Virus record (IMG/VR): IMGVR_UViG_3300030102_003270
Coordinates: 1 to 64,000 of that record
Strand: one strand, 5' to 3'
Source: a virus
DNA: 64,000 bases
Shown here: positions 320-18,836 of the stretch, in pieces
Position numbering within the stretch: the first letter of the stretch is position 1
Layout: each line of letters opens with the position of its first letter
Notes under the pieces: model-generated
Told to the model about the DNA's origin: nothing
Seen by the model: the letters and a program-made list of their open reading frames with translations, nothing else
The model's database searches: none
Position numbers and translations under genes: made by a program

Positions 320-1852
320 ATGAAGTATGGTTTTGATTTGATGACTGAAGATGAGGCACAGCAGATGGTCTATCAATACCTCAAGAGATTTGGCTATAAT
401 CCAATACAGGCTTTTCCAAAAGCAGCATTTAGAGGAAATGGGGGAACGTTGCTATACAGACTATTCAACCCAGAAAAATATCTATCATATGTCTACTATG
501 TTGAGGATGAAGGAATAAGACATCCCTTGGCTGTTCGCACAGTAGCGATTAAGGCAGACAGAATACTCCTATACATGGGTCTTGTCTCAATGCGTGACAA
601 AATGAAACATAAGCCAGAAAAGAACTCAATGAAGACTTCCGATAGAAAGGGAGGAATGACGGAACGTGGTAAATTAATGGGAAAGCCGTTCTTCAGCCAG
701 ATACAGGAATTGACTAGAAGGCTGAAGTTACCTCCAATACAATTCACCGTGAATCCAGCAAATAGAAGTCAACCAATACCAGTTGGCTATAACTTGACTG
801 CCAGTGAGGATATGACTGGAGAGACACAAAGTAAGTGGTTGAGAGCAAACTACCCGGAACTATACAAAAATGGCAAATTTAGAAGAATGGAACAACAAAT
901 ACTAGATGACCTACAATGGACACCAGAAAAGGACAAGGCATATAGAGACATATTAAAATACAGCAAAAACATCAATTTTAGCAAGTTTATGTATGAAAAC
1001 GAACCTACTAGTTTCAATAAATATATTCATGTAGCAAATGCCGTAAATTCTAAAGTAGCGGATTCCTTAGAGGCACTTGGGTTAGTGAGGTATAATGACC
1101 AGAATCTCAATAACGATAGTGAAATATTTGGTTATCTAAAAGAAATACTTGACACGGTGGAAGAAAAGGATAGAACGGGGGTCTTCATCAAAATGCCAAC
1201 ACAAATCAAGAAGTGGATGAACGTATTGAAGATATTCGATACCTTTGATGATGATGAGGATGAGGATGATGGTCTTTCACCAGATGAGAAGATAACCAGA
1301 ATAAATCCAAAATGGCAAAGAATCATGAGAGGAACAGGTGGTAGGAAGCAACCTGCAAAGGAATACTACAAGAGGCAAATGATGGTCAACCCCGATGCAG
1401 ACCCATGTTGCGACGAACTAAGAGAACATCTATACAATTTGGTAGTCATAGAAGCAGGAGACTACTTGGGATTGACCGACTATGATATTAGGAAGAAGAT
1501 AGAAGATTTGACTTGTGACCAACTAAGCAGAAGCATGGAGTCTAATAGTTTCGAGATAGTAGAAGTGGAAATAAAACCAAAGAAAATCCTAGATGAAAAG
1601 AGAAAGAGAGCATTGGGAATAAAAGAACCAACGTTGTTCGAGAATCATCAGAACTGTAAAAGACAGATAGCATCATTTACAGAAGAACTACAAGAAGACG
1701 TAGAAAATCCCCTTGGTGCAGGTAATGTGCCAGACCCGGAAGAAATGACCAGAAACGAAAGGTTGAGAGAAAGGTTCCGAGATTACAGGGAAACAGTAGA
1801 AGGAAAGAAAGTAGAAAGATTCGGTTTTGAACAGGAGGAAGATGATTTATGA
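320..1852 (+). CDS. Hypothetical protein with a C-terminal CC...C...C domain
   Basis: 510-aa ORF with GGAGG upstream; PCCDELRE...LTCDQL...HQNCK resembles the 9959 protein. Confidence 0.75.
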   Translation: MKYGFDLMTEDEAQQMVYQYLKRFGYNPIQAFPKAAFRGNGGTLLYRLFNPEKYLSYVYYVEDEGIRHPLAVRTVAIKADRILLYMGLVSMRDKMKHKPEKNSMKTSDRKGGMTERGKLMGKPFFSQIQELTRRLKLPPIQFTVNPANRSQPIPVGYNLTASEDMTGETQSKWLRANYPELYKNGKFRRMEQQILDDLQWTPEKDKAYRDILKYSKNINFSKFMYENEPTSFNKYIHVANAVNSKVADSLEALGLVRYNDQNLNNDSEIFGYLKEILDTVEEKDRTGVFIKMPTQIKKWMNVLKIFDTFDDDEDEDDGLSPDEKITRINPKWQRIMRGTGGRKQPAKEYYKRQMMVNPDADPCCDELREHLYNLVVIEAGDYLGLTDYDIRKKIEDLTCDQLSRSMESNSFEIVEVEIKPKKILDEKRKRALGIKEPTLFENHQNCKRQIASFTEELQEDVENPLGAGNVPDPEEMTRNERLRERFRDYRETVEGKKVERFGFEQEEDDL

Positions 1853-2145
1853 GTTGGAGAGATATATTGAAAGATGCAAGCGCAGTGAAAGAGTTGGAAG
1901 ACATGATGAGCAAACCCATGCCAAGTTATCAAGGGTTGAAAGCGACCCTTGTAAACATACAAAGGAATTACCCTATGATATTCTCAGCAAATGAGAATGT
2001 CGCTGATATGAATCAAATGGTTCAGCAGATGATAGATGAGGCAGAAGCACACTATCGGGTAACTAGGCAATTAGGGGTTAAGAAACTAGAGGAACAACTT
2101 CGCAGCGTTTCTGATTCAATCAACAGATTACAAGAATTGGAGTGA
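1849..2145 (+). CDS. Small helical protein with the N-terminal W-x-x-I-L-K tag
   Basis: Starts MSWRDILKD; ATGA overlap with the upstream gene; GGAGG RBS. Confidence 0.8.
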   Translation: MSWRDILKDASAVKELEDMMSKPMPSYQGLKATLVNIQRNYPMIFSANENVADMNQMVQQMIDEAEAHYRVTRQLGVKKLEEQLRSVSDSINRLQELE

Positions 2146-2150
2146 TTGGA

Positions 2151-2309
2151 ATGAAATGGTGGTCTGTTCTCAAAGAGGGCGGAGCAGTTGTATTTGGTGG
2201 TCATGGTGCTAATCCATTGATGAACATAGTTTATGGTAGCAAAATGAATAGGAAGAACCTCAATCAAGAGGAAGATGATGAGGAGGAAGACGAGATTGCC
2301 AAAGACTAA
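2151..2309 (+). CDS. 52-aa tagged protein absent from the ORF track
   Basis: Manual translation MKWWSVLKEGGAVVFGGHGANPLMNIVYGSKMNRKNLNQEEDDEEEDEIAKD*; GGAGTGA RBS; fills the gap between genes. Confidence 0.75.
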   Translation: MKWWSVLKEGGAVVFGGHGANPLMNIVYGSKMNRKNLNQEEDDEEEDEIAKD

Positions 2310-3453
2310 GAAATCCAAAAGGACAGTTAGAATAACTAATTCTGATGGTGAAGAGGTAGTAGTCACACAAACCTTCGATGTAGAACAATTCAGAACAGTC
2401 TACAAGAAATGGAAATCAGAATGTCAAGGTATGTCGTCCAAGGAAATGGGAATAAAAGGGGGAGAGAATCTTTTCAAGGTTATCTCAAATCATGGATTAC
2501 CAGCAGCGCAACGTCCACAAGCAAAGAATCCAGTTAGCGAAGAAGAAGGCATAGGGAAATTGCTTAGGGAGATAGATGATTTGGTTGAAGGACCGTCTTT
2601 AATCACTGAGTCATTCAAAGACGACGTTATGGATGCAAAACAGAAACTAGAAGACATTCAAGGAACTGATGCTGACCCAAGAAACATACCATTCACAGTT
2701 CCAATTTATAGGCGAGTCAATAAGAAAACTGCTGCCTATGACAAGGAAAAGCACACAAAAAGATTCTATGGGCATTACAGGACTCCCGATTATTTCAAGT
2801 TTAGAAATCTAAAGGCTAAGGTATTCGATACAAAGAAGTTTGAGGAAACAATTGACCCAGTAGATAGCAGTTACTACAAGACCAAGAAGAACGAATCAAA
2901 GCCTCCAATGTGGCAAGCATTATTTTCAACGGAGGGAGATTCTGGCAAAGATATCAAAGTGGGATTGCTTTCTGTATTGGAAATGGCAGAAGACATGATT
3001 GATGATGTAGAGATAGAGCATGTAAAACTGAGATTGAGAGGTGTTGCCAAAGGAGGTCTTGCCAAGGAACTGTTTGAGATATCCGACATAAAGGAAACCA
3101 TATTGAATCTACTAGGAACAACAACTCAACTAGGTCAAGGGGTAAATCCAAAGACAGGCAATATTAGAGATGACCAAATTGCTAGATTGTTTAGGGATAG
3201 ACTTTCCTTTACTGCTACTCCTAGTGAGTCTAATCAAATAAAAGATGTCTATGGAATTGATGAGGAGATAGTAGGGAAGGTCAAGGGTTATTCCCTTGAC
3301 ATAACTAGAGGCATAGTTAAGAGTCTATTCTTAGAAACGGGTAAAGTAGCAAGAAGGTCTGCAAAGGGACCAGTCTATCTCAAAGGCTATACCCCTCCTA
3401 GTGAGAAGAAGAAAGAAGTAAAGAAATCGTGGAGGGAAATGATAGCATGGTAA
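2275..3453 (+). CDS. Hypothetical protein (true start may be TTG at 2296)
   Basis: 392-aa ORF; ends KKSWREMIAW, a tag-like motif at the C-terminus. Confidence 0.75.
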   Translation: MMRRKTRLPKTKKSKRTVRITNSDGEEVVVTQTFDVEQFRTVYKKWKSECQGMSSKEMGIKGGENLFKVISNHGLPAAQRPQAKNPVSEEEGIGKLLREIDDLVEGPSLITESFKDDVMDAKQKLEDIQGTDADPRNIPFTVPIYRRVNKKTAAYDKEKHTKRFYGHYRTPDYFKFRNLKAKVFDTKKFEETIDPVDSSYYKTKKNESKPPMWQALFSTEGDSGKDIKVGLLSVLEMAEDMIDDVEIEHVKLRLRGVAKGGLAKELFEISDIKETILNLLGTTTQLGQGVNPKTGNIRDDQIARLFRDRLSFTATPSESNQIKDVYGIDEEIVGKVKGYSLDITRGIVKSLFLETGKVARRSAKGPVYLKGYTPPSEKKKEVKKSWREMIAW

Positions 3454-4103
3454 CTAGAAGAAGATGTAAGTTATGCAATCATGAGAACCGTGATGCCTTA
3501 GAAGCACAATTGGAAACAATGAACATAGCACCCGATGACTTGGATAAGATGGAAGGATGGCCTAGTGGAACCACATCTAAACACATGAGAAACCACATGG
3601 GGGATTATCATGATGCTTCAAATCCACGTTGTAAAATATGCACACATGAATTAAGACCCCTTATAGAAGAACAACTAGGTCAAGGCCATATTACCCCTAA
3701 TGCAGTGGCAAAAATGGTAGATTGCACCGAAGAACAAGTTAAGAGACATATGACAAAACATCTTCAACCACTCGTTCAAAAATCAGCAGCAAATATTATA
3801 GCGATGAGAGAGGTAGACGAGATTGAGTCTCTATCTAGGAACATATCAAGACTGGAACAAAAAATAGACATATTATTCGACCAAGAAGATATGAATCCTA
3901 AATATGTAGATAGTTTGACTAAGATGGCAAAAGAAATAAGAGAGAGTCTTAGATATCTTATGGAGTTCAAAGGTAAACTTATACATAAAAGACAAGATAC
4001 AGTTATTGTTACACAAATGCAGATTGTTAAAGAAGTATTAGCGCAGAATCACCCTCAAGTATGGTTAGATGTTAAATCAAAGATGGAGGAGAAGTTACAA
4101 TGA
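3447..4103 (+). CDS. Putative terminase small subunit with tandem Zn-binding HTH repeats
   Basis: Two repeats of CxxCxH...HMxxH (CKLCNH...KHMRNH, CKICTH...RHMTKH) followed by a coiled coil; upstream of TerL; the ATG at 3447 follows GGAGG. Confidence 0.55.
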   Translation: MVTRRRCKLCNHENRDALEAQLETMNIAPDDLDKMEGWPSGTTSKHMRNHMGDYHDASNPRCKICTHELRPLIEEQLGQGHITPNAVAKMVDCTEEQVKRHMTKHLQPLVQKSAANIIAMREVDEIESLSRNISRLEQKIDILFDQEDMNPKYVDSLTKMAKEIRESLRYLMEFKGKLIHKRQDTVIVTQMQIVKEVLAQNHPQVWLDVKSKMEEKLQ

Positions 4104-4177
4104 GGCCAGAATCAACATGTCAAATGTTCATGAGTTTCCTAGCGGAAATGTTTGAAGAAATGGAGAAGGTAGAATGA
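4100..4177 (+). CDS. Possible 25-aa micro-ORF
   Basis: MRPESTCQMFMSFLAEMFEEMEKVE*; ATGA overlaps at both ends; GGAGGAG upstream. Confidence 0.4.
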   Translation: MRPESTCQMFMSFLAEMFEEMEKVE

Positions 4178-4347
4178 GTTGGAAAAAACTGTTGAAGCAA
4201 GATGAGGGTCTTGGTGATACCATAGAAAGGATAACCACCAAGACAGGAATAAAGAAAGCCGTTGATTATGTTTCTGAGAAAACTGGTCGTGATTGCGGTT
4301 GTCAAGCAAGAAAAGAAATGCTTAATAAAAAATTCAAGTATAATTGA
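4174..4347 (+). CDS. 57-aa tagged protein with a GLGD...CGC..R..LN motif, absent from the ORF track
   Basis: Manual translation MSWKKLLKQDEGLGDTIERITTKTGIKKAVDYVSEKTGRDCGCQARKEMLNKKFKYN*. Confidence 0.8.
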   Translation: MSWKKLLKQDEGLGDTIERITTKTGIKKAVDYVSEKTGRDCGCQARKEMLNKKFKYN

Positions 4348-4359
4348 GGTGATTGAATG
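4345..4359 (+). promoter_or_regulatory. Stop/Shine-Dalgarno/start cassette TGAGGTGATTGAATG, identical at 26279 and 53487
   Basis: GAGGTGA is complementary to the archaeal 16S 3' end; the same 15-mer occurs at three gene junctions. Confidence 0.7.
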
Positions 4360-5271
4360 AAGTGGTTTGATATTGTAAAGGCTCCTCCACCAATGACATT
4401 TAGAGGAACTACTTGGAAATTCTTCGCACCCGGAGACATACCATACCTAGAAGATTTGATTATGGCTAAGGATGCTCCTTGGGAAGAACTATGGCCTACT
4501 GTATCTAGAAAGATATTTTTCGAGAAAGACCAAACTTTCACACCTAAACTAAAAGGAAAGGGTGTAGGATTTTGGGCTATAATGAATATAACCAACGGAG
4601 AATTAGTAGGTGAGGGTTGGGAGATGATGAGGACTAGAGATACATTGAATCGAGATGACCCCGAATCAGTTACAGAAGTGCAATGGGGAATGGGAATGAA
4701 TTCCTTGCAACTAACTCCAAATCAGATAGGAGTAGAGGTAATCAAATACGGGGCAATACCAAAGGTGGAAGTAACCATACCACCGGAAAGTAATCTTCTT
4801 TCAAGGATTGGAGAAGAATACATGAAGGATAAGTTTGAAACCAATCCCGGTAATTATCAACTAAACAACGGGGAGGCAGCAGCACTAGCAATTCTAGGTA
4901 TATTTGCAGAACAAAGAAAACCTAGAGAACGTAAGAATAGAATAAGACTGTTCGATGAATTCCGTATAGGGCCGTTGAAGAAAGAAAGCAACAGCAAGTA
5001 CCTAAGAGGATTAGAGCAGAAGGGTCTTGTTGACTATGGCTCAATGAGAGATGACATTTCTCCTAGCAATAGGGGCTATCCAAGAATAACCAACGAAGGT
5101 TATAGGGAAGCAACAATGCAGGTTGATATGCCTAGAGCAGTTTTCTTTAGCGAGGAAATGGAAGAGGGACCAAGAGGGGAAATGATTCCCTATGGTTTCA
5201 AAGCGAAAGTATTGAAACAACCCGATGCTCCATATATGGGGTATGAAGGCGGTGCATTGGCTGAAGGATAG
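4357..5271 (+). CDS. Tagged hypothetical protein with a possible C-terminal winged helix
   Basis: Starts MKWFDIVKA; GAGGTGA RBS; LNNGEAAALAIL...LRGLEQKGLVDY...ITNEG is wHTH-like. Confidence 0.75.
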   Translation: MKWFDIVKAPPPMTFRGTTWKFFAPGDIPYLEDLIMAKDAPWEELWPTVSRKIFFEKDQTFTPKLKGKGVGFWAIMNITNGELVGEGWEMMRTRDTLNRDDPESVTEVQWGMGMNSLQLTPNQIGVEVIKYGAIPKVEVTIPPESNLLSRIGEEYMKDKFETNPGNYQLNNGEAAALAILGIFAEQRKPRERKNRIRLFDEFRIGPLKKESNSKYLRGLEQKGLVDYGSMRDDISPSNRGYPRITNEGYREATMQVDMPRAVFFSEEMEEGPRGEMIPYGFKAKVLKQPDAPYMGYEGGALAEG

Positions 5272-5277
5272 ATTTAG

Positions 5278-7227
5278 ATGTGGCTAGACGTATTGAAGGC
5301 TTTACCTCAAAAGGAAGCAATAGAACCAATGCTTAGTGATGACAAGGGATTGTCTTCTATAATTGGCATGGCTAAACTACCCGATAAGAAAGGTCTGAAG
5401 AATGCGGTTGATGAGACAAAGAGGCTATCTGAAGGAAACGTTAGCACCAACTATAACAAGGAAGATAGAGACAAGATAATAGAGAATGCCGAGAAAGCAT
5501 ACAAAGCACTCAAGGAAATCCTAGATGAATATAGAAAAGAGCAACAGCCCGGTAAAATGGCTGGAAGAATAAAGGAAACTTTGAAGGACATATTAGAAGA
5601 AGAAGACATGGATAGATTCAAAGAATTTATTGGCACAACAGAAATACGCCGACAAAGAAACTCTAGAGAGAAAATAAAAGCAGTCAAAGAACTAGAAGAC
5701 GATGTTAAGAACTTCATCAACGAGAACAAGAAAGACTTCTATTGGGTAGATACCTCTAGCAGAAAACTATTGACTGTTGACGAACCGCCCGAATACATAG
5801 AGGGAGAAATTAAACAAGAAGAGATTGATGGCAGAAAAATCTTCGTTACTGACTTGCCAGATAGAATGAGTGTAGATGACTACAAGAAGACATCAGCATG
5901 GTTCATGGAAGGAAAGAAAAAGAAACCTCTAGGCTACAAGACAGAAGGCCGAGTTCAGTTAGCACCTTTAGTTGCTATATTTGGCTTGTTAACCAGTAGG
6001 GCAGCAGAAGAAGCCACTGACCCATTTACCAATAAGAGATTCACAGTTAACGTTAACACTGGAGAAGACGCAGTAAAATACCTATCATTGCTTACAAAAC
6101 CAAGGTGGAGGAGGTCTTCTGAGTTCATGCCTAAACCTAATCTAAAAAGTTCTGGTGCCACTGTCGCTGCAAGAAAGGCATTGCTAATGCCACAAGGAAA
6201 GGTATTGATTCCTTCTGCATTGAGAGCAATACTAATCAATCCGTCATTAGACATAAACGCCTTGATGGAAGAAGGGGTAAAGCAAACCAAGGAGAAGATA
6301 GTTCCTAATTTTGTTAGAATGGTTCTGATGGGAGAAGAAGACTTTGACTTAGAGGAACAAGGAATAAACCCATCTGACTTTAGAGAATTGCAGAAATTGT
6401 TTACAGGAGCATCCAAAGGAAGAATGTCCGAGTTCGTTAGAAGAGTGAACAGAAAGGGAGGTAGTCTCAAGTCCACCTTGGACACTATAATAGAATTCTA
6501 TGTTGATAAGCAGAATATGTTCAGCGAGGAAGAAGCACAGAAACTTGAGGAAATAAAAGATAGGATGGACGAATACGATACTCAATCAGAACATAAACAG
6601 GCTTTGGAGCAGATATATGAAAACATACCAGATTCCTTGGCAGACTCAATGTATGATTTGATGGACGAGGCAGAAGAAAAGGGAGTATCGTTGTTCAATA
6701 AGGTAGGAGAGTTCTACAAACTCAAAGTAACAGGTTTAGACAAGGAAACAACAGATAGGTTGAACCGTGACTTTAGGGCTTTGAGAATGGACTCAGAAAA
6801 AGTTTCTATTAGCGTAGAGGATAGTTCTTGGAGCAAGATAGAAGAAGAATATGACGAAGAGTATGACCTATCATCAACAGCAGGTCTTAACGTTCTAGAC
6901 ATATTCCACATAATTGCGCTTCTCGATTGGTATTATGGTCAAACAGACTTGTATGAAAAGATACAAGATTGGCTTAATCCAGATGAGTATGAAGAAGAGG
7001 ATGTTCTATTTGATGAGGTAAAAGCAGCAGCAATACAGAACTTCGGGGATATAGTAAATTCATTCATAGAGGCAGTAAAGCAAAGAGTCGAAGATATAGT
7101 TACTAGGCCAAAGACATATCAAGACAAATTAGTGTATACAGAAAAGAGAAAAGATGGTTCTGCCACTAAAGCAACAAAGATGATTAGAGACTTACAAGAA
7201 GCAGGGGTAGTGTCGGTGGTGCAATGA
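5278..7227 (+). CDS. Large tagged acidic helical protein
   Basis: 649 aa; starts MWLDVLKA. Confidence 0.8.
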   Translation: MWLDVLKALPQKEAIEPMLSDDKGLSSIIGMAKLPDKKGLKNAVDETKRLSEGNVSTNYNKEDRDKIIENAEKAYKALKEILDEYRKEQQPGKMAGRIKETLKDILEEEDMDRFKEFIGTTEIRRQRNSREKIKAVKELEDDVKNFINENKKDFYWVDTSSRKLLTVDEPPEYIEGEIKQEEIDGRKIFVTDLPDRMSVDDYKKTSAWFMEGKKKKPLGYKTEGRVQLAPLVAIFGLLTSRAAEEATDPFTNKRFTVNVNTGEDAVKYLSLLTKPRWRRSSEFMPKPNLKSSGATVAARKALLMPQGKVLIPSALRAILINPSLDINALMEEGVKQTKEKIVPNFVRMVLMGEEDFDLEEQGINPSDFRELQKLFTGASKGRMSEFVRRVNRKGGSLKSTLDTIIEFYVDKQNMFSEEEAQKLEEIKDRMDEYDTQSEHKQALEQIYENIPDSLADSMYDLMDEAEEKGVSLFNKVGEFYKLKVTGLDKETTDRLNRDFRALRMDSEKVSISVEDSSWSKIEEEYDEEYDLSSTAGLNVLDIFHIIALLDWYYGQTDLYEKIQDWLNPDEYEEEDVLFDEVKAAAIQNFGDIVNSFIEAVKQRVEDIVTRPKTYQDKLVYTEKRKDGSATKATKMIRDLQEAGVVSVVQ

Positions 7228-9668
7228 AGATAGTTCAAGATTACATCACAATGTCACTTCGCCCATTTAGAAGGCAATATGGGGATGAGGCCAAGAACTT
7301 CCGTAGAAATCTTCCTAATCTTGATTTTAGTCTGAGTCATATACCTCAAGAAGTAAAGGACTCAAAGACCAAGGATAGTTACAGGAAGATATTGTTAGAC
7401 AAGGGATTCAACTCCGAATACATTGACAAGTTTATGTCTAGCATAAGTGATGATTTGGAACAGGCAAAGGAGTCTTCTCTAGATTCTCTAGGTGTGTATT
7501 TTAGACACAAAGGAGAGAAGTTGAAAATAAAGGATTTGAAGTCTGGCATAAGACTAGAAAACATCACTAGGAACAAAGGCTACAAGGATGAAGAGATACT
7601 TGGAGTCATAGACCAACTAAAGAACATAAACCCTAACTTTAGGTCTGCACTAGCAGTTCTAGAAACAAAGGTATCATCGAAGATAGACAATGCAGATAAA
7701 ATGTCTATTGATTTTGAGGATGTCTTTGGAGAAATGGACATGCGACTACTGAATTCAAGGAAGAAGGTCTATGATTACTTCAAGAAGAAACATTCTGTAT
7801 ATTCTGATATGAAGAAGAAGATAAAATACATCATGCTATCTTGGGATAGGATTGTAGAAAACATAGAAACTGGTGAACTGAATTTAAAGACTGATGATTT
7901 CATAGTAGAGGATTTGAATGATGACTTAGAAACACTATTCAAACTATACAAAGAAATGGACGGAATGAATTACATTGTGAAACTATCTCCTGTCAAGATA
8001 CCCACATACCCAGACACAGATAGTGGTTCTTCTCTTGCTGCTTCAAATATCATGTATAATTACTTGAAGCACATACTAGACGAAAAAGACACATCATACA
8101 GTGAAAACGTTTCCACTGAAAGCGAAGACGAAAGGATGGCTAGGAGACAACAACAAGAAGGGGATGAAGAGGATTTCAATAGGAGATTCATGTCTGGATA
8201 TGGAAGCGAGGAAGAAGGCACTCTAGCAGCAGAAATAGACCTACAACCAATGTCTTCAGAAGAATTGAAGGAAAAGGAATGGAGCATGAACATAGACAAA
8301 TTGACTCTAATTGAAGAAGTGGACCCACTTTATGCAATAGCAGCAGACAAGGGAATACTTAGACAGGCACATACCAAGAACTCAAGGGATAGAATGGCTA
8401 ATGATATCAGAATAATAATTCAAGGAGTAGAGCAGGATAACCCAACAATGGTAGGTGTTTTCAATGAACTACTAGAAGATTTAGAGGAACTACAAGACCA
8501 AGCATCTGATATAGATAGGGAGGTTTACTTCGTTCCTTTGACACCTAGCGTATCTAAACTATACGACAGATATTATTCGGGTGAACCGTTAGACTATGAT
8601 AAGATAGAAACCTTCCATGTCAAGATGATTAAGGCGATATCAGAAATAATAGAACTACCGGAGGATAGAACCCTACTGCCCTATCATTGGCTTCAAGAAG
8701 ACTATGGAATAACTGGTAGCCAAAGTGAGAGGGAAGAAAAGGCCAAACAAACAACGGCCTTTCAATCCACTTCATTGGGTAGAAGTGGAAAATTGAAAGA
8801 CTTAGGTAAATTCACAGATGCAATCATGGAATTATTAGAATTAGCCGAGGAATACTACGTTGACCCAATAACAGACAACATGTTGCGATTCGATTCACTA
8901 CCTAAGTATCTAGATAGGAAAGCATCATCAGCACTAACAACTCATGGGAAGAACGAAGTAGCACAACTGCTACAAGCAGCGTATATATCAGAATACACTG
9001 CCTTCATCAGCAATGCTGATTTGGAAGACATAAATGAATACAGAAGAATACTTAGGGCAACTCCATCAGAAAAAGGATTCAAGAAAACAATAGCAAAAGT
9101 GGAAAGGGTGTTGGATATACTCAGCGACTTATTTCCAAAGGACAGGGAGAAGGACAGAACATACTTTGCCAATAGGCTAAGAAACATGTCCAGTAAGAAT
9201 AGTAACATAAATTTGGAAAACTACTACCTAGATGGGAAGAAGATATCTGAATTGACAAGCAAAGAGGACGTTGCAGGTAACTATGGTAAACTCATAGCAA
9301 TGATATACTCAGTCTCCTCCGAGATGAAGAAGGATAAAACTAAGGAGGATTCTATTGCAGAATTCAAGGAACTACATGATGACTTCAACAAGCGAACAAA
9401 ACTAGCAGGTCCACAGGGGCAATTGTTGGATGCTCATGACGCAATAAGAAAGATGATGAATAAGCCCACATACTATGGAATATGTGATGTCGAATCCTAT
9501 GATAGTGTAAATGATACTATTGATTTGATGAAATCAGAATATGGTATTCAATTGACAGCACATGATATAACAAACATAGTAGAAGAGATAGATAGTCTAG
9601 AGTCGCTTGCTAAGAAACATGGAACAAATGAAGATGTTATCTATCATGTAAAGGCAATGTATAGGTGA
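7224..9668 (+). CDS. Large hypothetical protein with a possible C-terminal HTH
   Basis: 814-aa ORF with ATGA overlap; ends SLESLAKKHGTNEDVIYHVKAMYR. Confidence 0.75.
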   Translation: MKIVQDYITMSLRPFRRQYGDEAKNFRRNLPNLDFSLSHIPQEVKDSKTKDSYRKILLDKGFNSEYIDKFMSSISDDLEQAKESSLDSLGVYFRHKGEKLKIKDLKSGIRLENITRNKGYKDEEILGVIDQLKNINPNFRSALAVLETKVSSKIDNADKMSIDFEDVFGEMDMRLLNSRKKVYDYFKKKHSVYSDMKKKIKYIMLSWDRIVENIETGELNLKTDDFIVEDLNDDLETLFKLYKEMDGMNYIVKLSPVKIPTYPDTDSGSSLAASNIMYNYLKHILDEKDTSYSENVSTESEDERMARRQQQEGDEEDFNRRFMSGYGSEEEGTLAAEIDLQPMSSEELKEKEWSMNIDKLTLIEEVDPLYAIAADKGILRQAHTKNSRDRMANDIRIIIQGVEQDNPTMVGVFNELLEDLEELQDQASDIDREVYFVPLTPSVSKLYDRYYSGEPLDYDKIETFHVKMIKAISEIIELPEDRTLLPYHWLQEDYGITGSQSEREEKAKQTTAFQSTSLGRSGKLKDLGKFTDAIMELLELAEEYYVDPITDNMLRFDSLPKYLDRKASSALTTHGKNEVAQLLQAAYISEYTAFISNADLEDINEYRRILRATPSEKGFKKTIAKVERVLDILSDLFPKDREKDRTYFANRLRNMSSKNSNINLENYYLDGKKISELTSKEDVAGNYGKLIAMIYSVSSEMKKDKTKEDSIAEFKELHDDFNKRTKLAGPQGQLLDAHDAIRKMMNKPTYYGICDVESYDSVNDTIDLMKSEYGIQLTAHDITNIVEEIDSLESLAKKHGTNEDVIYHVKAMYR

Positions 9669-9672
9669 TAAA

Positions 9673-9957
9673 ATGAAATTAAGGCATAAGATGATAAGCA
9701 AGGCAATTGCTTTGATGGGTCATGTCTATGTCTACTTAGATAGTAAGATGCCTCCAGAAACAGGACCAATTCTAGGATTAGAGATAGACAGTGATTTTGA
9801 GAAAATGACAAGAAGGGAACTATGTAACCACATAGAAAACAAATTTGGGTTGGAGAAAGATACTTTTTGGTATTTGCAATCAACACAGAAAATAAGATAC
9901 TGCTGCCAGAAAGCAAGAGAGTTGATGAAACCGAGTAAAATGAACAGGGGATATTGA
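9673..9957 (+). CDS. Hypothetical protein
   Basis: 94 aa; AGGTGA RBS. Confidence 0.7.
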   Translation: MKLRHKMISKAIALMGHVYVYLDSKMPPETGPILGLEIDSDFEKMTRRELCNHIENKFGLEKDTFWYLQSTQKIRYCCQKARELMKPSKMNRGY

Positions 9958-9958
9958 T

Positions 9959-10387
9959 ATGAGTTGGTTTAAAATCATAAAAGAAGATGATTATGATGAA
10001 GCGAGAAGAATATTGAACAGGCCAATGGAAGTAGAAGATTGGATGAAAAGAACGATGAAACCGCATACTCAACATAGGAACTGTTGTGAATATACACAGG
10101 AGAAATTCAAGTTAATGCCCAATTACAGAAATGTGCATGAAGATATTCAAGAATTCATCATGGGTATAAATTGCAAGAACAACGAAGAATCAGATACTCT
10201 ACTACTACTTTTGGAAAACATAGATGAGGATGGTATGGAACTGATGAATGATGCTATGATAGAAGAGGGTTTGACTCCTCCAAGCATAAGTGAGTTAGAT
10301 GCTAATGTCAAAGCAATGAGAGAACTTCTAAAATTCTGGCAGACCTGTGAGGCAGAATCCACAGACAAAAGAGGAGTTCCACAGTAG
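9959..10387 (+). CDS. Tagged protein with a CC...C...WxxC domain
   Basis: Starts MSWFKIIKE; NCCEYTQE...INCK...WQTCE. Confidence 0.75.
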   Translation: MSWFKIIKEDDYDEARRILNRPMEVEDWMKRTMKPHTQHRNCCEYTQEKFKLMPNYRNVHEDIQEFIMGINCKNNEESDTLLLLLENIDEDGMELMNDAMIEEGLTPPSISELDANVKAMRELLKFWQTCEAESTDKRGVPQ

Positions 10388-10398
10388 GAGAGAGATTA

Positions 10399-11838
10399 AT
10401 GAGTGGGATGGAAGACCTAAATTTCTCTCACACAATGGATATGGAGTTATCTAAGAACTCATTTCCATATTTCTTTCAGAATGTACTGGGTATGATGTAC
10501 CCAGAATACATGCAAGAATGGTTAGAAACAATGGAGAATACAGATAGAACAGTTATTGTTTGTAGCCGTGACCACGGAAAGTCAGTATTCATGCACTCAT
10601 GGGTAGTATGGAATTTAGTATTCCAAGAACCACCATATCAGATGCTATACATATCATCTAACCAAAAGCAGACACTCGTTCACATGAGAGAGATTGATAG
10701 ATATTTCAACATACCACAACTCAAGAAATTTAGGCCATCTAGAGGATGGGCGATAGGTAACATCCAGTTGACAAACGGCAATTCTATTCTAGAAAGGTCG
10801 GTAGGTTCTCAGATTCGTGGTCTTCACCCACAGGAGATTATCATTGACGACCCCTTGAAGGAGTTTAGTTTGGCTGGAATCAATAGAGTTACTGATTGGT
10901 TCTTTGGAGACATGATACCTACGCTTCATCATACTGCTAATCTTAGAATGATAGGCACTCCGTTCACATATACTGATATTTTTACTCAATTAGAGGAAAA
11001 TGCAGCGTATACCGTTAGAAAATACCCATGTTTAGACTCAAATAATGACCCTCTTTGGCCGGAAAGGTGGAATTATGAAGCATTGATGCAGAGAAAAGCA
11101 GAAATAGGCTCTCTAAAATTCACTAGAGAGTATTTGTGCATACCAATATCAACAGGAACGGCATTATTTGGACAAGAACACTTGGAAAATGCGAAAAATG
11201 AGCATTTGATATTGAGATTAGGCAATAGAAGGGATAAAGGCTACAAATACTACGTTGGTGTTGACCCTGCCATCTCAACAGACGGAGATTACAACGTAAT
11301 CATAGTCTTAGAGGTAGATGAGAACATGAATAAGTCAATTGTTCACATAGATAGGGCCAAAAACGTGCAGTTTAGAGAGAATATAGAGAAACTTAAATTG
11401 ATTGGTCAGATATTTCAGCCAGAAGTGGTTTTGTATGAGACAAATACATTCGCAAAGGCATTTACGCAAGAGTTGAGAAGCGTTACCGATATGAATGTTA
11501 GAGACTTCAATACAACAAGGAGAAAAAAGCAAGAAATCATCTTGGGTCTTCAGATGAATTTCGAGAATAACAAAATACACCTACCCTATGGGGATAACAA
11601 TAGTAGGAAGATGACGATGAATATTATCGAGGAACTATCCATGTTTTCAATCACTGATTCTGGTAAGTTTGAGGGAGTTGGAGCGCACGATGACTTGGTA
11701 ATGGCCCTTGCTTTAGCAAATGCGGCCTCTCAAACGCCTTCTGAGTCCTTTATGCTACTAGACGACCTAGAATTATTTGATGGCCCACAAAAGCCTTCTA
11801 TTGGACTTCCTGTGGGAATAGCAGGTTTGAACTTTTGA
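10399..11838 (+). CDS. terL: Terminase large subunit
   Basis: Walker A variant SRDHGKS, Walker B IIIDD, IGTP coupling motif, RNase H-like nuclease GVDPA...HDDLVMALALA. Confidence 0.95.
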   Translation: MSGMEDLNFSHTMDMELSKNSFPYFFQNVLGMMYPEYMQEWLETMENTDRTVIVCSRDHGKSVFMHSWVVWNLVFQEPPYQMLYISSNQKQTLVHMREIDRYFNIPQLKKFRPSRGWAIGNIQLTNGNSILERSVGSQIRGLHPQEIIIDDPLKEFSLAGINRVTDWFFGDMIPTLHHTANLRMIGTPFTYTDIFTQLEENAAYTVRKYPCLDSNNDPLWPERWNYEALMQRKAEIGSLKFTREYLCIPISTGTALFGQEHLENAKNEHLILRLGNRRDKGYKYYVGVDPAISTDGDYNVIIVLEVDENMNKSIVHIDRAKNVQFRENIEKLKLIGQIFQPEVVLYETNTFAKAFTQELRSVTDMNVRDFNTTRRKKQEIILGLQMNFENNKIHLPYGDNNSRKMTMNIIEELSMFSITDSGKFEGVGAHDDLVMALALANAASQTPSESFMLLDDLELFDGPQKPSIGLPVGIAGLNF

Positions 11839-11842
11839 AGAG

Positions 11843-13168: not shown

Positions 13169-13170
13169 AA

Positions 13171-14823
13171 ATGGTGCAAGAGAGAAGAAGATTCACCCTC
13201 ACTAATCTATTTAGGAGGGCGACCCCAAAGCCGGAAGATAGGAAGATATTCAATCCCGGCATACAAGAAAAAGATACAAGTTATATGATAACTTCACCAA
13301 TACTCTATCATGTTGCTCAGTCTTCTGTAATAGTCAGAACTTGCACAACCCAGTTGAAGAATGAGATATTCAGAAGAGGATATACATGGGAAGAGAAGTT
13401 CACATCAAAATGCGGTGAATGTGGCAACGAGCATCAAAGCGCAGTAAAACAGTGTGCTGATTGTGGTTCTATGGAACTAAAGAAACCAGACAAAAGCCAA
13501 TTAAAATATGCTCACAAATTCCTAGATAGATATGTCAATTCATCTGAGCAATTGTTCATTGACGTATTGAAGGAATTAGAGGATGACCTAAACATCATGG
13601 ATGACGCATATATCATATTGGTCAAGGAATACTATATTGACAATGCTGGTAAAATAAGAATGCATAAGATAAATCAGATATATCGTGGCGACCCTGTGAC
13701 CATGCACATCCATTCAGACATGAATGGTGACAAGGGTAATTCTGGCTTCACTTGTATCAAGCACAGGGACCAAATCACAGAAGACCCAGTTGGACATTGT
13801 GAGATATGCGGGGATATGATGTACCCTGTCCATTATGTGAATAGAGTGAACGGAAAGGAACAGTATTACATCGAGGGTGAGGTTCTTCACTTCAGTAAAT
13901 ACAACCCAAGTAGATTGTATGGGCTATCTCCTGTATTGACATTATGGAATCACATAACCACTTTACTTGCTATGGAGAACTACGTCAATTCATCATATTC
14001 CAAGAGCAGAATGCCTAGAGGACTTCTTGCGGTGCAGACTAGAAATATAGACTCAATGAAATCCTTCTGGCGAGGAGTCAAAGAAAAGATGGAGCAAGAC
14101 CCTCACTTCATACCTGTTATGGGTATTGAGGCAGAAAACGGTAAGGGTTCTATTGAGTGGATTAAGTTCATGGATAGTCTGAAGGAAATGGATTACGTTT
14201 CTGTTAAGGACGACCTAAGAGATAGAATATCAGCATTCTACGGAGTAAGCAAGATATTCATGTCTGATAATTCTGCTAGTGGCGGATTGAATAATGAGGG
14301 TATGCAGATACTTGTGACCAATAGGGCAGTAGAGATGGCTCAGACACTTTACAATGAATATGTTTTACCTTTCATAACCAAGGAGTTTGGTATTACAGAT
14401 TGGCAATTGAAACTACCTCCATCGGAAGAGGAAGATGCAATAGCAAAACTAAGGAAGAGAGAAATCGAAGTAAATATTGCAGCATCAATAAAGAATCTAG
14501 GTTTCGAGGTTGATATGGACGATGAAGGAAGATTTACGTTTGAGAAGCCTCCTCCAGAAATGCAAGAAGGAAAGAAGGATAAGGATGAGGAAATAGAATT
14601 AGACCCCTATGCAGGAACCAACATAGACCAATCACAATTAGGACAAATGATGGAACAAGGAACTAGACCTACTAAAGAGGAAGCAGGTAAGCCAGCAGAA
14701 GTAAAGGGACAGACTAGAAACAAACCTAGCATGAGTGTAGGTCCAGACCAAAGATTCACAGGACTACCTAAAGAAGCAGGTAATCAAAACGTGGACAAGA
14801 GGACAGAAAGGAGGGTTGGTTAG
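13171..14823 (+). CDS. Portal protein with Zn-ribbon insertions
   Basis: Follows TerL; portal motifs EVLHF...YGLSP, MPRGLL and RISAFYGV; CxxC pairs are inserted. Confidence 0.9.
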   Translation: MVQERRRFTLTNLFRRATPKPEDRKIFNPGIQEKDTSYMITSPILYHVAQSSVIVRTCTTQLKNEIFRRGYTWEEKFTSKCGECGNEHQSAVKQCADCGSMELKKPDKSQLKYAHKFLDRYVNSSEQLFIDVLKELEDDLNIMDDAYIILVKEYYIDNAGKIRMHKINQIYRGDPVTMHIHSDMNGDKGNSGFTCIKHRDQITEDPVGHCEICGDMMYPVHYVNRVNGKEQYYIEGEVLHFSKYNPSRLYGLSPVLTLWNHITTLLAMENYVNSSYSKSRMPRGLLAVQTRNIDSMKSFWRGVKEKMEQDPHFIPVMGIEAENGKGSIEWIKFMDSLKEMDYVSVKDDLRDRISAFYGVSKIFMSDNSASGGLNNEGMQILVTNRAVEMAQTLYNEYVLPFITKEFGITDWQLKLPPSEEEDAIAKLRKREIEVNIAASIKNLGFEVDMDDEGRFTFEKPPPEMQEGKKDKDEEIELDPYAGTNIDQSQLGQMMEQGTRPTKEEAGKPAEVKGQTRNKPSMSVGPDQRFTGLPKEAGNQNVDKRTERRVG

Positions 14824-15494
14824 TGTGGAAGAGTGTTCTGCTAAAATCTTCTAATTTTAATACGCTTATGGCTTGGTGGTCTAGATACGTTAGACCCGAT
14901 AATGAGCAAAATGAATCCTTCTTGGATATATGGGTTACGTGGGAAGAAATAGAAGCAATAGAGAATAGTGATGCTGTTGAAAGAAGACTCGTTGGCAGTT
15001 ATCCAAGAATACAACTGTTGGAAGAAATAGAAAGAAGGATAGGTTTCTTATTGAAAATTGTAGTGGATGGAGCATATAGTCAAGGAAGCAACATTAGCAT
15101 AAAATACAAAAATGCTGACAATTCTAATCTAGTTAATAACTATGTATACCATGCCAAAGATTATTCTGATATGTATAAAGAACTAATCTTATATGAAAGA
15201 TACAGAGTAGATGACATATCCAATAATATCTGGAACACATCTGTATCGGCACTAAAAAGAAAAAACTATCCGAATATGCAAACAGAAAGAAATAAGCATC
15301 AAAAACTCAAAAGACATATACCTAAAGACTTGTTAGAGAAATTCACAGACGAAGAAGAGGAGAAGATGCTAAAGGTAATTTCCAGTAATGATTATTCATA
15401 CAATAATTATCTGATAATGCAACTGATAAAGAATCAAAGGTATAGTACAGATATAAACGCACTAAGAACAGCATTAAGAGATGTGGAATTATGA
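14823..15494 (+). CDS. Tagged hypothetical protein
   Basis: GTG start MWKSVLLKS; GGAGG RBS. Confidence 0.7.
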   Translation: MWKSVLLKSSNFNTLMAWWSRYVRPDNEQNESFLDIWVTWEEIEAIENSDAVERRLVGSYPRIQLLEEIERRIGFLLKIVVDGAYSQGSNISIKYKNADNSNLVNNYVYHAKDYSDMYKELILYERYRVDDISNNIWNTSVSALKRKNYPNMQTERNKHQKLKRHIPKDLLEKFTDEEEEKMLKVISSNDYSYNNYLIMQLIKNQRYSTDINALRTALRDVEL

Positions 15495-15622
15495 AATGGG
15501 AAGAAATAGTTAAGAAAAAGAAAAAGCCAGATTTTCTGGATTTAGATGGAGATGGAAACAAAACGGAGCCTATGAAAGAGGCAGCGAAAGATAAAGGTAA
15601 GAAGGGTGAGAAAGATGAGTGA
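15491..15622 (+). CDS. 43-aa tagged peptide with a DxDxDG motif, absent from the ORF track
   Basis: Manual translation MKWEEIVKKKKKPDFLDLDGDGNKTEPMKEAAKDKGKKGEKDE*; ATGA overlap. Confidence 0.75.
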   Translation: MKWEEIVKKKKKPDFLDLDGDGNKTEPMKEAAKDKGKKGEKDE

Positions 15623-15827
15623 GAAAAGCGTAAGAGATTTAGAAAGAGAACTAGTCAAGGCTAGAAAAAGAGAAGCCAGCGAGCGTAAAGTTAACACAAG
15701 TAGAAACTTGGATTACATAGGCCCAGACCCTAACTCAGTGAAAAAGGAAAAGCCCGGAATGGCAGATATACCAGACTATATCGGACTACCAAAGAAACAA
15801 AGAAGAAGAACAGAAAACAAGTGGTAG
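15615..15827 (+). CDS. Small basic hypothetical protein
   Basis: ATG at 15615 after GGTGA; MSEKSVRDLERELVKARKRE... Confidence 0.65.
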   Translation: MSEKSVRDLERELVKARKREASERKVNTSRNLDYIGPDPNSVKKEKPGMADIPDYIGLPKKQRRRTENKW

Positions 15828-15829
15828 TC

Positions 15830-17935
15830 ATGAGTTTCATGGATGTATTGAAGGCCAAGCCGATAATCATAGAGAAATCTATGCCTATTGTAAAGGAAGA
15901 CTATACATCCAGACCATTATACAGAAAACTAGAATCTAGGTTAGAGGAAATCAGTGGACTGAGCGCACCTGTTCCCACTATAATGCAAGCGGTTGATGAA
16001 GCAATAAAGGATAGCCAACAGTCTGATGTTGAGTTATCAGCAGAAGAAGAGAAGCAAATGAAGGTGAAGATAAAATCACTCAAGGAAGAATTGAAACTAG
16101 TTGACAAGACTAGCAAAAAAGCATATCAAAATAGAATAGAAAACCTTGAGAAAATCATATCGAGGTTAGAGGAACTAAAAGAAACCCACGATGAAATCAT
16201 GGAAAGATTAGAGCCACTAAAGAAGGAATATAAAGAACTAGAAGGGGGAATGGGGGAAGAGGCTCAGACTAGAGCAAAGGAACTAAATGAAAAAATAAGA
16301 CCTCTAGAGAAAGAAATCAATGAAATAAAGAGTAACATGCGTTTTGCATTTACTGGGACTTTCTCATATCGTCCGGTGTTACCCGAAGAAAAGACTGAGG
16401 GAAAAATGGCTGATAAAGTATCTAAGAAGCCTAGAAACGAGAGACAAAGAGATGGAGATGCAGAATATGACATCACCTTCTCAACAGGGATAGCGAACTA
16501 CAAGAAGAGGGTGGAAGAATACAACAAACTAGAGCCTATCGTAACAAGCAAGAAAGACAAGGCAATAACAAAGGACAAGATAAAACAACAAATAGATTCT
16601 TTGGAAAGGCAAGTTAAAACAGGGAAGAAAGATAGACCTCTTCTAATCACTTCCAAGGGAGGTATAGGTAGGCAGGAGAATGTCAATGCTGTTCTAGTCA
16701 ATGCAATAAGACAACTAAACATGTCAGAATATGCAGATGAAATAGTAGACAAACTCTCGCCTAAGATACGCCAAAGAGTCAAAAGACAAGAAAGAGAACT
16801 AAACAACCAAGAAGAAGCATTGATGCAGTTAATAGATGAACTGAATGCTGAAGAGATATCTAGTTCCACCGAAACAAGATTGCAAGTAAACAATATGCTC
16901 AACAATAGATTCCTATACAATATGACTCTAAACGTATCTGGAGAAAGAGATAACATACATCCCGATGTGGTAAATGCGCTAAGGGAACCAGATGTGTTTG
17001 AGGATGTAGTTAGAAAGATGAAGGAAATAAAACCAAGTCTGAAGAGAGTGAAGTCCAAGGATGTAAGAACAGTCATGCAATCCTTACGAACAGCAAAGAC
17101 AGATGTATCTCAAATAGCGAGACAGGTTCTATCAAGACAATATCCCGACAATATAGAATACAAAGACCTACTAGCATTGAACTCAGAATCGGATTTAAGT
17201 AAATTACTAGACAAACTTGGAATGCTGGTTGCATCATGGGATGCATTGTCAGATAGATTTTTCCTCGATGCAGAAGATGTGGATGAACAGTATTGGTCTG
17301 ATGAAAAGATAGTAGCAGAAATAAAAGAAAGTTGGGAGACACTATTGGAAGATGCACCGGAGATAGCAGGGTTGAGCGAGGAAGAAATGCAATCCAAGTA
17401 TAATGAGCATCTAAAGAAAGGATATAGTAGACTGGTCAAGCAAATGGAAAAACTATACAAGAGCATAATAATGTATTACGATGCAAGCATGACTCTATTA
17501 GATGCATTCATCAGCGCAAAGGGATTCAGATATCAACTACCTGCAACTAGTGATTGGTCGGGAATACTCACATTAGGGGCAGGTGAAAAGAGAGACACTG
17601 ACTTGGCTTTGGAAACCATTAGAAAGAATCTAATGGAGACAAAGAAGGATGTGGATGGACAGCGAACCATAATGAAAGGCTTCATTCCTAATATAGATGA
17701 CTACATGCAATCGCTAGAGGAAGACAATGTAGATAGCACTTTACTCGATGAATATGAAAGAGCCAGCAAAGAAGCACAAAGAGAAAGAGTTAGGCAAGCA
17801 AAAGAAGAAGACGATAAGAAAATAAGAAGGGATAAGGATAATCCTTATTCCAGAAGGGCAACTACCGAGACAATGAGAGAGGCATCTAAGCCGTTCCTTG
17901 AACAGCCAAAAAGAAAGAAAGAAGAAGAGGAATAA
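15830..17935 (+). CDS. Large coiled-coil protein with a variant tag (F for W)
   Basis: ATG at 15830 gives MSFMDVLKA; long heptad-like charged region. Confidence 0.75.
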   Translation: MSFMDVLKAKPIIIEKSMPIVKEDYTSRPLYRKLESRLEEISGLSAPVPTIMQAVDEAIKDSQQSDVELSAEEEKQMKVKIKSLKEELKLVDKTSKKAYQNRIENLEKIISRLEELKETHDEIMERLEPLKKEYKELEGGMGEEAQTRAKELNEKIRPLEKEINEIKSNMRFAFTGTFSYRPVLPEEKTEGKMADKVSKKPRNERQRDGDAEYDITFSTGIANYKKRVEEYNKLEPIVTSKKDKAITKDKIKQQIDSLERQVKTGKKDRPLLITSKGGIGRQENVNAVLVNAIRQLNMSEYADEIVDKLSPKIRQRVKRQERELNNQEEALMQLIDELNAEEISSSTETRLQVNNMLNNRFLYNMTLNVSGERDNIHPDVVNALREPDVFEDVVRKMKEIKPSLKRVKSKDVRTVMQSLRTAKTDVSQIARQVLSRQYPDNIEYKDLLALNSESDLSKLLDKLGMLVASWDALSDRFFLDAEDVDEQYWSDEKIVAEIKESWETLLEDAPEIAGLSEEEMQSKYNEHLKKGYSRLVKQMEKLYKSIIMYYDASMTLLDAFISAKGFRYQLPATSDWSGILTLGAGEKRDTDLALETIRKNLMETKKDVDGQRTIMKGFIPNIDDYMQSLEEDNVDSTLLDEYERASKEAQRERVRQAKEEDDKKIRRDKDNPYSRRATTETMREASKPFLEQPKRKKEEEE

Positions 17936-17937
17936 AT

Positions 17938-18492
17938 ATGTGCAATTCTTGTGGAGATGATACTCATGTTGTCAAAGAGGAATTCTCTTCAGATGTATGG
18001 GTCAAAGGATATGATAACTGGAAGAAAGTCCTAAAGAATCTAAGACCAGAAACTATAATCAGACCAGATGAGAAAGATAGAAGCAGAAGCGATGACCTTT
18101 CTTGGATTGCTCCTATTGATGCTGTTGATTTGAAGGACGAACAAGACGTTAGAACAAAAACTGCTGATTGCCCTGAATGCGAATTCATAACCGATGGAAG
18201 CATGGAGGATAGAAGAAAGTCAAAAGAAAACCCAAACTATCCCGGCAAATGCAAAGAATGTGCAGAATATTGGTGTTCAGTTCCATACAATGATAGATAC
18301 TCAGATAGTGGTATGTGTGGTTTTAGGGTATGCGAGAAGCATTGGAAGAAGATGACAAAAAACGGTAAAATAACGGACACAGTAGGAGGCCATCGTTTTA
18401 CAGGAGATTATGATACTACCAGAAGACAATCGGACTATGATGAAGATGGTCAATTTAATGAAGACAGATACAACAGGAGGAATCGGAGATAA
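17938..18492 (+). CDS. Cys-rich Zn-finger protein
   Basis: CNSC, CPEC, CKEC..WC and CGFRVCEKH; internal tag-like NWKKVLKN near the N-terminus. Confidence 0.7.
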   Translation: MCNSCGDDTHVVKEEFSSDVWVKGYDNWKKVLKNLRPETIIRPDEKDRSRSDDLSWIAPIDAVDLKDEQDVRTKTADCPECEFITDGSMEDRRKSKENPNYPGKCKECAEYWCSVPYNDRYSDSGMCGFRVCEKHWKKMTKNGKITDTVGGHRFTGDYDTTRRQSDYDEDGQFNEDRYNRRNRR

Positions 18493-18836
18493 TGTGGGAA
18501 AGCCAACTATTGAAAGAAGACAGTGATTTACTTCAAAAGGTAAATCCTAAGCAAAAGAAGAAACTGAAGAAATTGGTTCAGACATCTGAGCCTAGTGAGT
18601 ATATGGGACAGGACTTTACCAAATTGAGTGACTTAGTAAAGGAACTAAAGTCGCTAGATATGATGAAGTCAGACAAGAAGATGCTCAAGAAAATGAATAA
18701 GATAGATGAGGCCAATGTCTCCTTGATTGCTGCCGCATCTGAATTGAGAAAGGAATACGAAACTCTATACAGACAACTTAGAGGATTAGTATATCCAAAA
18801 AGCAAAGGAGAACTAGGAGATGAGAAAAATGAGTGA
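18492..18836 (+). CDS. Tagged small coiled-coil protein
   Basis: Starts MWESQLLKE; TAATG overlap. Confidence 0.75.
   Translation: MWESQLLKEDSDLLQKVNPKQKKKLKKLVQTSEPSEYMGQDFTKLSDLVKELKSLDMMKSDKKMLKKMNKIDEANVSLIAAASELRKEYETLYRQLRGLVYPKSKGELGDEKNE

Follow-up and report, generated by a model that had tools for sequence, protein, structure and literature searches.

Background

The closest described counterpart of the peptide considered here is the capsid-targeting sequence (CTS) of bacteriophage T4, which was reportedly described for the internal proteins IPI-III and for Alt by Mullaney and Black in 1996. A short N-terminal propeptide of the internal proteins and of Alt, the CTS binds the prohead core, works on foreign proteins as well and is cleaved off by the prohead protease (PMC7411985, PMC9958956). 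A short N-terminal peptide, hereafter the tag, of the form M-[STN]-W-x-[DE]-[IV]-[LIV]-K was detected at the start of at least 21 open reading frames (ORFs) in a single group-B magrovirus genome of 96,269 bp (IMG/VR record IMGVR_UViG_3300030102_003270), of which the first 64 kb represent the stretch of DNA that was analysed and is referred to as the window. Sequence comparisons give good support to the view that this tag is a portable, lineage-specific module. The same comparisons, along with analogy to known systems, suggest that it may be a capsid-addressing peptide with the procapsid as destination, a reading that we put at an even chance.

A preliminary description of the window had likened the tag to the T4 CTS, and the analogy is apt, since both are short N-terminal peptides common to otherwise unrelated proteins. 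The two peptides also resemble each other in being portable and in being carried by non-essential soluble proteins, in having a fixed end residue and in the nearby position of a prohead protease gene. Moreover, the tagged genes of magroviruses vary between relatives, as do the internal-protein loci of T-even phages. However, there is no sequence likeness between the peptides. The T4 CTS attaches to the gp22 scaffolding core, and gp21 cleaves it after Glu, whereas the magrovirus tag ends in Lys, resembles the tail of the scaffold itself and belongs to a virus with an S78 (HK97-type) protease that is not of the gp21 family. Further differences are the number of carriers, about 20 per magrovirus genome compared with four or five in T4, the archaeal host of the magroviruses and the function of their tag, which is predicted from sequence. 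Alike in behaviour wherever the two could be compared, but without CTS homology and with another end residue and another protease family, the magrovirus tag is to be regarded as an analogue of the T4 system and not as a member of it.

Two other types of targeting signals invite comparison. Duda, Oh and Hendrix are said to have described a C-terminal capsid-targeting signal of the HK97 maturation protease in 2013, in a work cited in PMC12749128. This signal and the coat-binding helices of phage scaffolds have a parallel in the magrovirus protease-scaffold, which possesses a conserved terminal motif at the same position that is copied by the tags. In contrast, the phage signals are C-terminal and are confined to one or two assembly proteins, whereas the magrovirus motif occurs at the N-terminus of more than 100 unrelated families. 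The cargo-loading peptides of encapsulins are likewise short terminal peptides that direct diverse cargo into a shell with the HK97 fold, but encapsulins are cellular nanocompartments without DNA, portal or protease, and their peptides are usually C-terminal and unrelated in sequence to the tag.

According to the protease, the nearest cultured relatives are the haloviruses HVTV-1, HCTV-1 and HCTV-5 (protease domain about 32% identical), which share the gene order terminase, portal, protease and major capsid protein (MCP). In contrast to the magrovirus, HVTV-1 carries no tag on any head-module gene and has, in place of the many small tagged proteins, three large ones between portal and protease, one of which is annotated as 'head assembly'. 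By its position, this syntenic slot may be counted in favour of a role of the tagged genes in the capsid. Since HVTV-1 is untagged, the origin of the tag system lies within the magroviruses or at their base. The motif is not mentioned in the paper on magroviruses (PMC5434244), and searches of the available literature yielded no description of the tag.

The tag in a group-B magrovirus genome

The tagged ORFs constitute about a fifth (~20%) of the genes of this genome and are located in one block of about 24 kb that extends from genome position 91 kb across the contig end to window position 18.8 kb. The preliminary description had counted about ten such genes and referred to them as head-region proteins. 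The ten N-terminal peptides were all recovered at the positions originally reported, as was the internal one of the 17938 ORF, and the shortness of the ORFs at 2151, 4174 and 15491 was confirmed. The number was nevertheless an undercount, as a scan of all start codons in the genome revealed 10 or 11 further tagged ORFs at genome positions 91080-96067, which adjoin the window start via the terminal overlap. With the set about twice as large and reaching about 10 kb upstream of the head module, the original label is too narrow. The ORFs of the window that carry the tag or a tag-like peptide are the following.

2-319, plus strand: body of a tagged 119-aa ORF; its start and its tag, M-T-W-F-N-L-V-K, lie at genome position 96067, before the window start
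1849-2145, plus strand: tagged ORF of 98 aa, MSWRDILKD, singleton family
2151-2309, plus strand: tagged short ORF of 52 aa, MKWWSVLKE, with a 35-nt overlap with the start of the 2275 ORF in another frame
4174-4347, plus strand: tagged short ORF of 57 aa, MSWKKLLKQ, homologues in 4 of 30 related loci
4357-5271, plus strand: tagged ORF of 304 aa, MKWFDIVKA, no Pfam family, present in 3 of 30 loci
5278-7227, plus strand: tagged ORF of 649 aa, MWLDVLKA, with nothing between M and W
9959-10387, plus strand: tagged ORF of 142 aa, MSWFKIIKE, directly upstream of the large terminase gene, no family
14823-15494, plus strand: tagged ORF of 223 aa, GTG start, MWKSVLLKS (W-x-x-V-L-L-K form), directly after the portal gene
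15491-15622, plus strand: tagged short ORF of 43 aa, MKWEEIVKK
15830-17935, plus strand: ORF of 701 aa with the F-variant tag M-S-F-M-D-V-L-K, a variant kept in 8 homologues
17938-18492, plus strand: ORF of 184 aa with the tag-like NWKKVLKN at residue 28; membership uncertain, internal matches occurring at about the chance rate
18492-18836, plus strand: tagged ORF of 114 aa, MWESQLLKE, just upstream of a scaffold-like small protein

Most of these peptides fit the single pattern W-x-x-[ILV]-[ILV]-K that had been proposed for all of them; the exceptions are the ORFs at 14823 and 18492, which have an extra residue before L-L-K, and the ORF at 15830, which has F in place of W. When each protein of the genome was shuffled within itself, about 1.2 matches to this pattern were expected anywhere in the proteome, compared with about 20 at N-termini, whereas internal matches (two seen) were near chance. 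A chance origin of the N-terminal excess is thus excluded. The statement that the proteins have nothing in common after the Lys was borne out as well, since each tagged protein of this genome formed its own BLAST cluster once the tag had been stripped.

The record was graded complete by CheckV. The two ends of the genome (1-162 and 96108-96269) share an overlap of 162 bp with few mismatches, two of them among the first 40 bases that were compared, which points to either terminal redundancy or a circular assembly, and the sequence contains a run of 10 N at genome positions 85686-85695 (~85.69 kb). Magroviruses are uncultured viruses of Marine Group II archaea and were reported to be dominant in the surface-ocean archaeal virome (PMC5434244). 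By comparison with their description in that paper, the gene layout appears to be that of magrovirus group B, with a size of about 100 kb, terminal redundancy, a split PolB, an ATP-dependent ligase lying in the structural module and, between terminase and portal, a LAGLIDADG gene; the ORF layout was the basis for recognizing this gene and the split PolB. The tail genes are located downstream of the MCP gene on the same strand, and archaeal-type replication genes, including PolB in two pieces, occupy the opposite strand. The core genes of the structural module, all identified by Pfam, are listed below.

10399-11838: large terminase (TerL)
13171-14823: portal protein
19308-21821: ATP-dependent DNA ligase, just upstream of the prohead protease gene
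21861-23111, plus strand: S78 prohead protease fused to an acidic coiled-coil scaffold, with the C-terminal motif M-S-W-A-E-I at 23064-23081
23117-24463, plus strand: MCP with HK97 fold, SU10-like

The protease matched PF04586 with an E-value of 3.7e-10 and 40.6 bits, the curated cut-off being 21.

Conservation of the peptide and diversity of the tagged proteins

The tag was followed through 80 related IMG/VR loci that comprise 1.39 Mb and encode portal proteins with 71-96% identity. At the starts of ORFs of at least 30 aa, the strict motif was present 288 times on the coding strand compared with three times on the opposite strand, and these counts are minima because looser variants are also common. 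Removal of the tag from 304 tagged proteins and subsequent clustering yielded 104 BLAST clusters, 63 of them singletons, with protein lengths of 37-869 aa and nothing conserved after the Lys. Searches of Pfam and PHROGs with 103 family representatives gave scattered single matches only, none of them with a useful function. A single tagged protein out of the 304 contains a transmembrane-like segment, and several untagged genes of this genome have such segments; the tagged proteins are therefore predicted to be soluble. The tag ends in Lys in 261 of 307 group-B cases and in Arg in 14, a distribution that points to a specific requirement for Lys and not merely for a basic residue.

The tagged genes turn over rapidly. 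Considering genes within reach of 30 related loci, the median number of loci in which a gene was found was 2 for the tagged ones and 30 for the untagged ones. The sole universal exception is the 114-aa protein encoded at 18492-18836, which is present and tagged in 30 of 30 loci (cluster 0, 35 members). The gene following the portal gene is also tagged in many relatives (cluster 2, 15 loci). Tagged genes extend from at least 10 kb upstream of the portal gene to a point about 6 kb downstream of the start of that gene, where the tag disappears; neither the DNA ligase gene nor any gene between it and the end of the tail genes carries it. The earlier statement that no tail or replication gene carries the tag proved correct, as it was absent from all 231 genes between the protease start and 10 kb downstream in 18 loci and from every replication gene of this genome.

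It had also been stated that the codons of the tag differ between genes, which applies to I, L, V, K, D and E, for which synonymous usage equals the background, but not to Ser in the second codon, for which 56 of 56 cluster representatives use AGT. Additionally, about 91% of the tags have A at position +4. Among untagged genes of the related loci L003-L161, AGT accounts for 59% of the Ser codons at codon 2, and A or G occupies position +4 in 74% of 1444 genes, which is a lineage-wide start-context bias. The fixed AGT can accordingly be read as a start-context preference combined with shared descent of the tag-coding segment. Since the remaining codons of the tag follow background usage, selection acts on the peptide.

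These data bear on the view that the tag is primarily a feature of the nucleic acid, either a translation-initiation element or a homology block for cassette recombination, with the peptide as a by-product. The invariant AGT and the frequent A at +4 would fit such a view, as would the very fast turnover of the tagged genes and the movement of protein bodies between virus groups, in which they gain the local tag at a sharp boundary (see below). Yet the other positions show background synonymous usage while the residue classes (W, acidic, two aliphatic residues, Lys over Arg) are held, untagged genes, too, encode Ser at codon 2 most often by AGT, and the peptide motif recurs at protein C-termini, where start context is irrelevant. 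We therefore consider this explanation improbable; recombination at the tag-coding DNA may well aid the exchange of cassettes, as a consequence of the tag rather than its function.

Lineage-specific tags on homologous proteins

A second tag was sought in IMG/VR by means of a degenerate pattern, and two near-complete genomes of a sister group, 108 and 97 kb in size, were taken for comparison. The sister-group tag has the form (M)-T-A-F-D-x-A-W-x-[LIV]-[VL]-K, is represented by 179 distinct examples, ends in Lys in 197 of 200 cases and is likewise carried by a block of small genes with which the late array opens. Pfam searches with ten of the tagged sister-group proteins detected only DUF6321. 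A comparison of protein bodies between group B and the sister group revealed homologous pairs in which each partner carries the tag of its own group and in which the similarity starts 0-3 residues after the Lys. For instance, a 52-aa protein is 82% identical to its sister-group counterpart apart from the tag, and the 143-aa protein encoded at genome positions 95639-96070 pairs with a sister-group homologue at an E-value of 4e-20. This swap of tags between lineages represents a natural experiment that marks the end of the module. Because homology begins right after the Lys, the tag ends at this residue, and because homologous bodies carry different tags, the tag and the bodies have separate histories. 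The swap also implies a receptor whose specificity goes with the viral lineage or with its host.

The same pairs argue against the idea that all tagged proteins are divergent paralogues of one family, of which the tag is the sole surviving conserved segment. Shared descent of the tag-coding segments, as suggested by the fixed AGT codon, would agree with this idea, but it has to accommodate 104 BLAST clusters of very different lengths, two structural models with different architectures (see below) and orthologous bodies whose tags change with the group. Common ancestry of the proteins as a whole is consequently very improbable.

A few sister-group proteins have a variant of the tag at the C-terminus too (for example G003 86129-86560 and 75898-76089). 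Furthermore, the sister-group magroviruses G001 (L229-L234) and G003 (L235-L240) each contain a candidate gene for a thermosome-type chaperonin of about 545 aa, recognized by the N-terminal sequence only.

Resemblance of the tag to the C-terminus of the protease-scaffold

The last 20 residues of the protease-scaffold contain the motif [ED]-M-S-W-x-[DE]-I-[NH] in all 22 aligned relatives, and residues 1-6 of the tag correspond to it. When 1.8 billion library representatives were searched, M-S-W-x-[DE]-[IV]-[HN] was found within the last 20 residues of scaffold homologues down to about 32% identity. The motif is situated at the extreme C-terminus of a protein that is encoded directly upstream of the MCP, in the position expected of a docking signal. 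In proteins from the related loci, the core S/T/D/K/N-W-x-[DE]-h is more frequent than at internal positions, by a factor of 74 at N-termini and of 20 within the last 25 residues, and the group-B scaffold tails rank at or above the 99th percentile of W-centred windows when scored with a matrix built from the tags. A second small protein of the head module closes with this motif too.

18820-19065, plus strand: 81-aa protein with the scaffold-type M-D-W-x-E-I in its C-terminus (19012-19065), kept in 30 of 30 loci

This protein may be a second scaffold-like or docking protein. For the distant protease-scaffolds P0040 and P0019, a search of IMG/VR yielded no related loci.

Tailed phages use the C-terminus of the scaffold or of the HK97-type protease for docking on the capsid protein, and it is mainly for this reason that the receptor of the tag is placed inside the procapsid. 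The tag would then be a copy of the C-terminal motif with which the protease-scaffold should attach to the inner face of the assembling procapsid, with the MCP as the presumed receptor of both the scaffold tail and the tag. A soluble protein with the tag would be co-assembled into the prohead, where the near-invariant Lys marks the end of the module and might be the point of cargo release by the S78 protease. Remaining in the head, the cargo would reach the next host cell along with the DNA.

Tag-like C-termini were also noticed on other proteins. The untagged 392-aa protein encoded at 2275-3453 of the window ends in S-W-R-E-M-I-A-W, and its homologue at L079:48-1136 has the tag-like end D-W-R-E-I-V-K-A-V. 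Similar C-terminal copies occur on a few other proteins of the relatives (L023:5044-5865, L036:6649-7215).

Candidate cleavage sites

Three sequence elements were considered as potential sites of cleavage after Lys. The F-[ND]-I-L-K (F-x-I-L-K) element flanking the protease domain, regarded as a candidate self-cleavage site on account of its likeness to the tag, recurs in distant S78 proteases of other architectures, and the h-L-K element before the protease domain is conserved in distant S78 proteases too; since they are kept there, both are probably elements of the fold (strands). The MCP's N-terminus (window 23117-23203, residues 1-29) contains G-N-x-L-L-K, with L-L-K at residues 26-28, and L27 and K28 are invariant in 45 group-B MCPs. 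This element is absent from the MCP of the sister group, and the argument for cleavage drawn from it was rejected as well.

Individual tagged proteins and neighbouring genes

Pfam searches with the proteins of the window assigned no family to any tagged one, and PHROGs searches with ten proteins of the window produced only two marginal matches to families of unknown function. Sequence searches of the PDB with the proteins of 649, 701 and 500 aa gave nothing usable, and a search of the ESM Atlas found nothing for the tagged proteins. The AlphaFold2 model of the 649-aa protein (pLDDT 80) is mostly helical, with residues 1-6 of the tag as a disordered extension. Foldseek found no match to this model in the PDB, and VIA-align returned generic helical or ferredoxin-like pieces with Z-scores of at most 6.5. 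The model of the 701-aa protein (pLDDT 69) consists of long helices and had no named match. Both models are helical but mutually dissimilar, and their matches in BFVD were unnamed viral proteins only.

A profile made from the tagged 143-aa protein at genome positions 95639-96070, located outside the window (L001:9640-10068), and four homologues matched the NAD-binding lobe of the RNA 2'-phosphotransferase Tpt1/KptA in the PDB with an E-value of 0.028. The alignment spans Y-H-x-T...N-L-x-S-I...G-[IL], and Pfam finds nothing in this protein. If the match is real, the protein might be a cargo with an ADP-ribosyltransferase fold, recalling Alt of T4.

The 142-aa protein encoded directly upstream of the TerL gene has no significant similarity to the untagged gene of 160-183 aa found in front of TerL in relatives. 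The possibility that the ORFs at 2151 and 2275 form a frameshift fusion was considered and rejected, as each has a separate Shine-Dalgarno-like site and no fused homologue was found. Two untagged genes without a Pfam or PHROGs family were noted inside the variable tagged block, encoding an 814-aa protein (window 7224-9668) that is kept in 30 of 30 relatives and a 224-aa Cys-rich protein (window 3429-4103) that is found in 21 of 30.

Discussion

The preliminary description had proposed a modular tag that loads an exchangeable set of cargo proteins into the prohead. The first part of this proposal was supported by the sequence comparisons, which show a portable N-terminal module, conserved at the protein level, on exchangeable soluble proteins near the head genes, and the likeness to the scaffold tail points to the procapsid, whereas capsid-protein binding, packaging, cleavage and injection are steps that we infer only.

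Several observations weigh against the procapsid as destination. Packaging and cleavage are conjectural, magroviruses are uncultured and have no virion proteome, and the sequence arguments for cleavage after the Lys failed. A fifth of the genes, or about 20 protein species including some of 500-700 aa, would be a large cargo for a capsid that holds about 96 kb. The tagged gene at 9959 occupies the usual position of the small terminase, which would not be a cargo protein. The sister-group scaffold ends in D-h-[DE]-G-W-R-A-[AV]-E-D-L and bears only a weak likeness to the tag of its own group. The tag matrix of the own group scored the scaffold better in 19 of 20 comparisons, yet the sister-group scores were not above background, and because of this weak likeness the mimicry of the scaffold holds for group B alone. 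Finally, lineage-specific tags would fit a receptor encoded by the host equally well.

The last point leads to the alternative in which the tag, as a short linear motif, is bound by a receptor outside the procapsid, either another viral protein or a host factor such as a chaperone, the proteasome-activating ATPase or the transcription or replication machinery. The tag would then serve cytoplasmic recruitment, timed degradation or regulation of takeover and accessory proteins. This alternative could account for a tagged block whose first genes lie about 10 kb upstream of the head genes, where the long plus-strand array starts, for the high share of tagged genes, including the one in the small-terminase slot, and for a sister-group tag without a clear match to its own scaffold tail; group-specific tags could track the lineage of the host as easily as that of the capsid. 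On the other hand, it leaves unexplained why the group-B tag resembles the C-termini of both the protease-scaffold and a second small protein of the head module and why the tag stops exactly where the core capsid genes start. A viral chaperonin as receptor is disfavoured, as none is encoded in this genome. Taken together, a receptor of this kind is rather unlikely.

The capsid-addressing peptide could, in a broader form, be part of a general and programmable delivery system, in which tagged proteins are packed, freed after the Lys and injected as an exchangeable arsenal of effectors against Marine Group II archaea, while a code between tag and capsid in each lineage re-addresses cargo genes that move between groups. 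This extension is put forward tentatively and is possible rather than probable.

A single portable tag would give a common fate to about 20% of the genes of a magrovirus, most of which are without known function, and it would single out candidates for the earliest-acting proteins in the host. Should the tag load capsids, archaeal viruses would gain their first described cargo-addressing code, one used far more widely than any other in tailed viruses, and the peptide could serve to fill shells of the HK97 fold with chosen proteins. The interest of the tag thus lies in the scale on which it is used and in the ease with which a peptide of eight residues can be tested.

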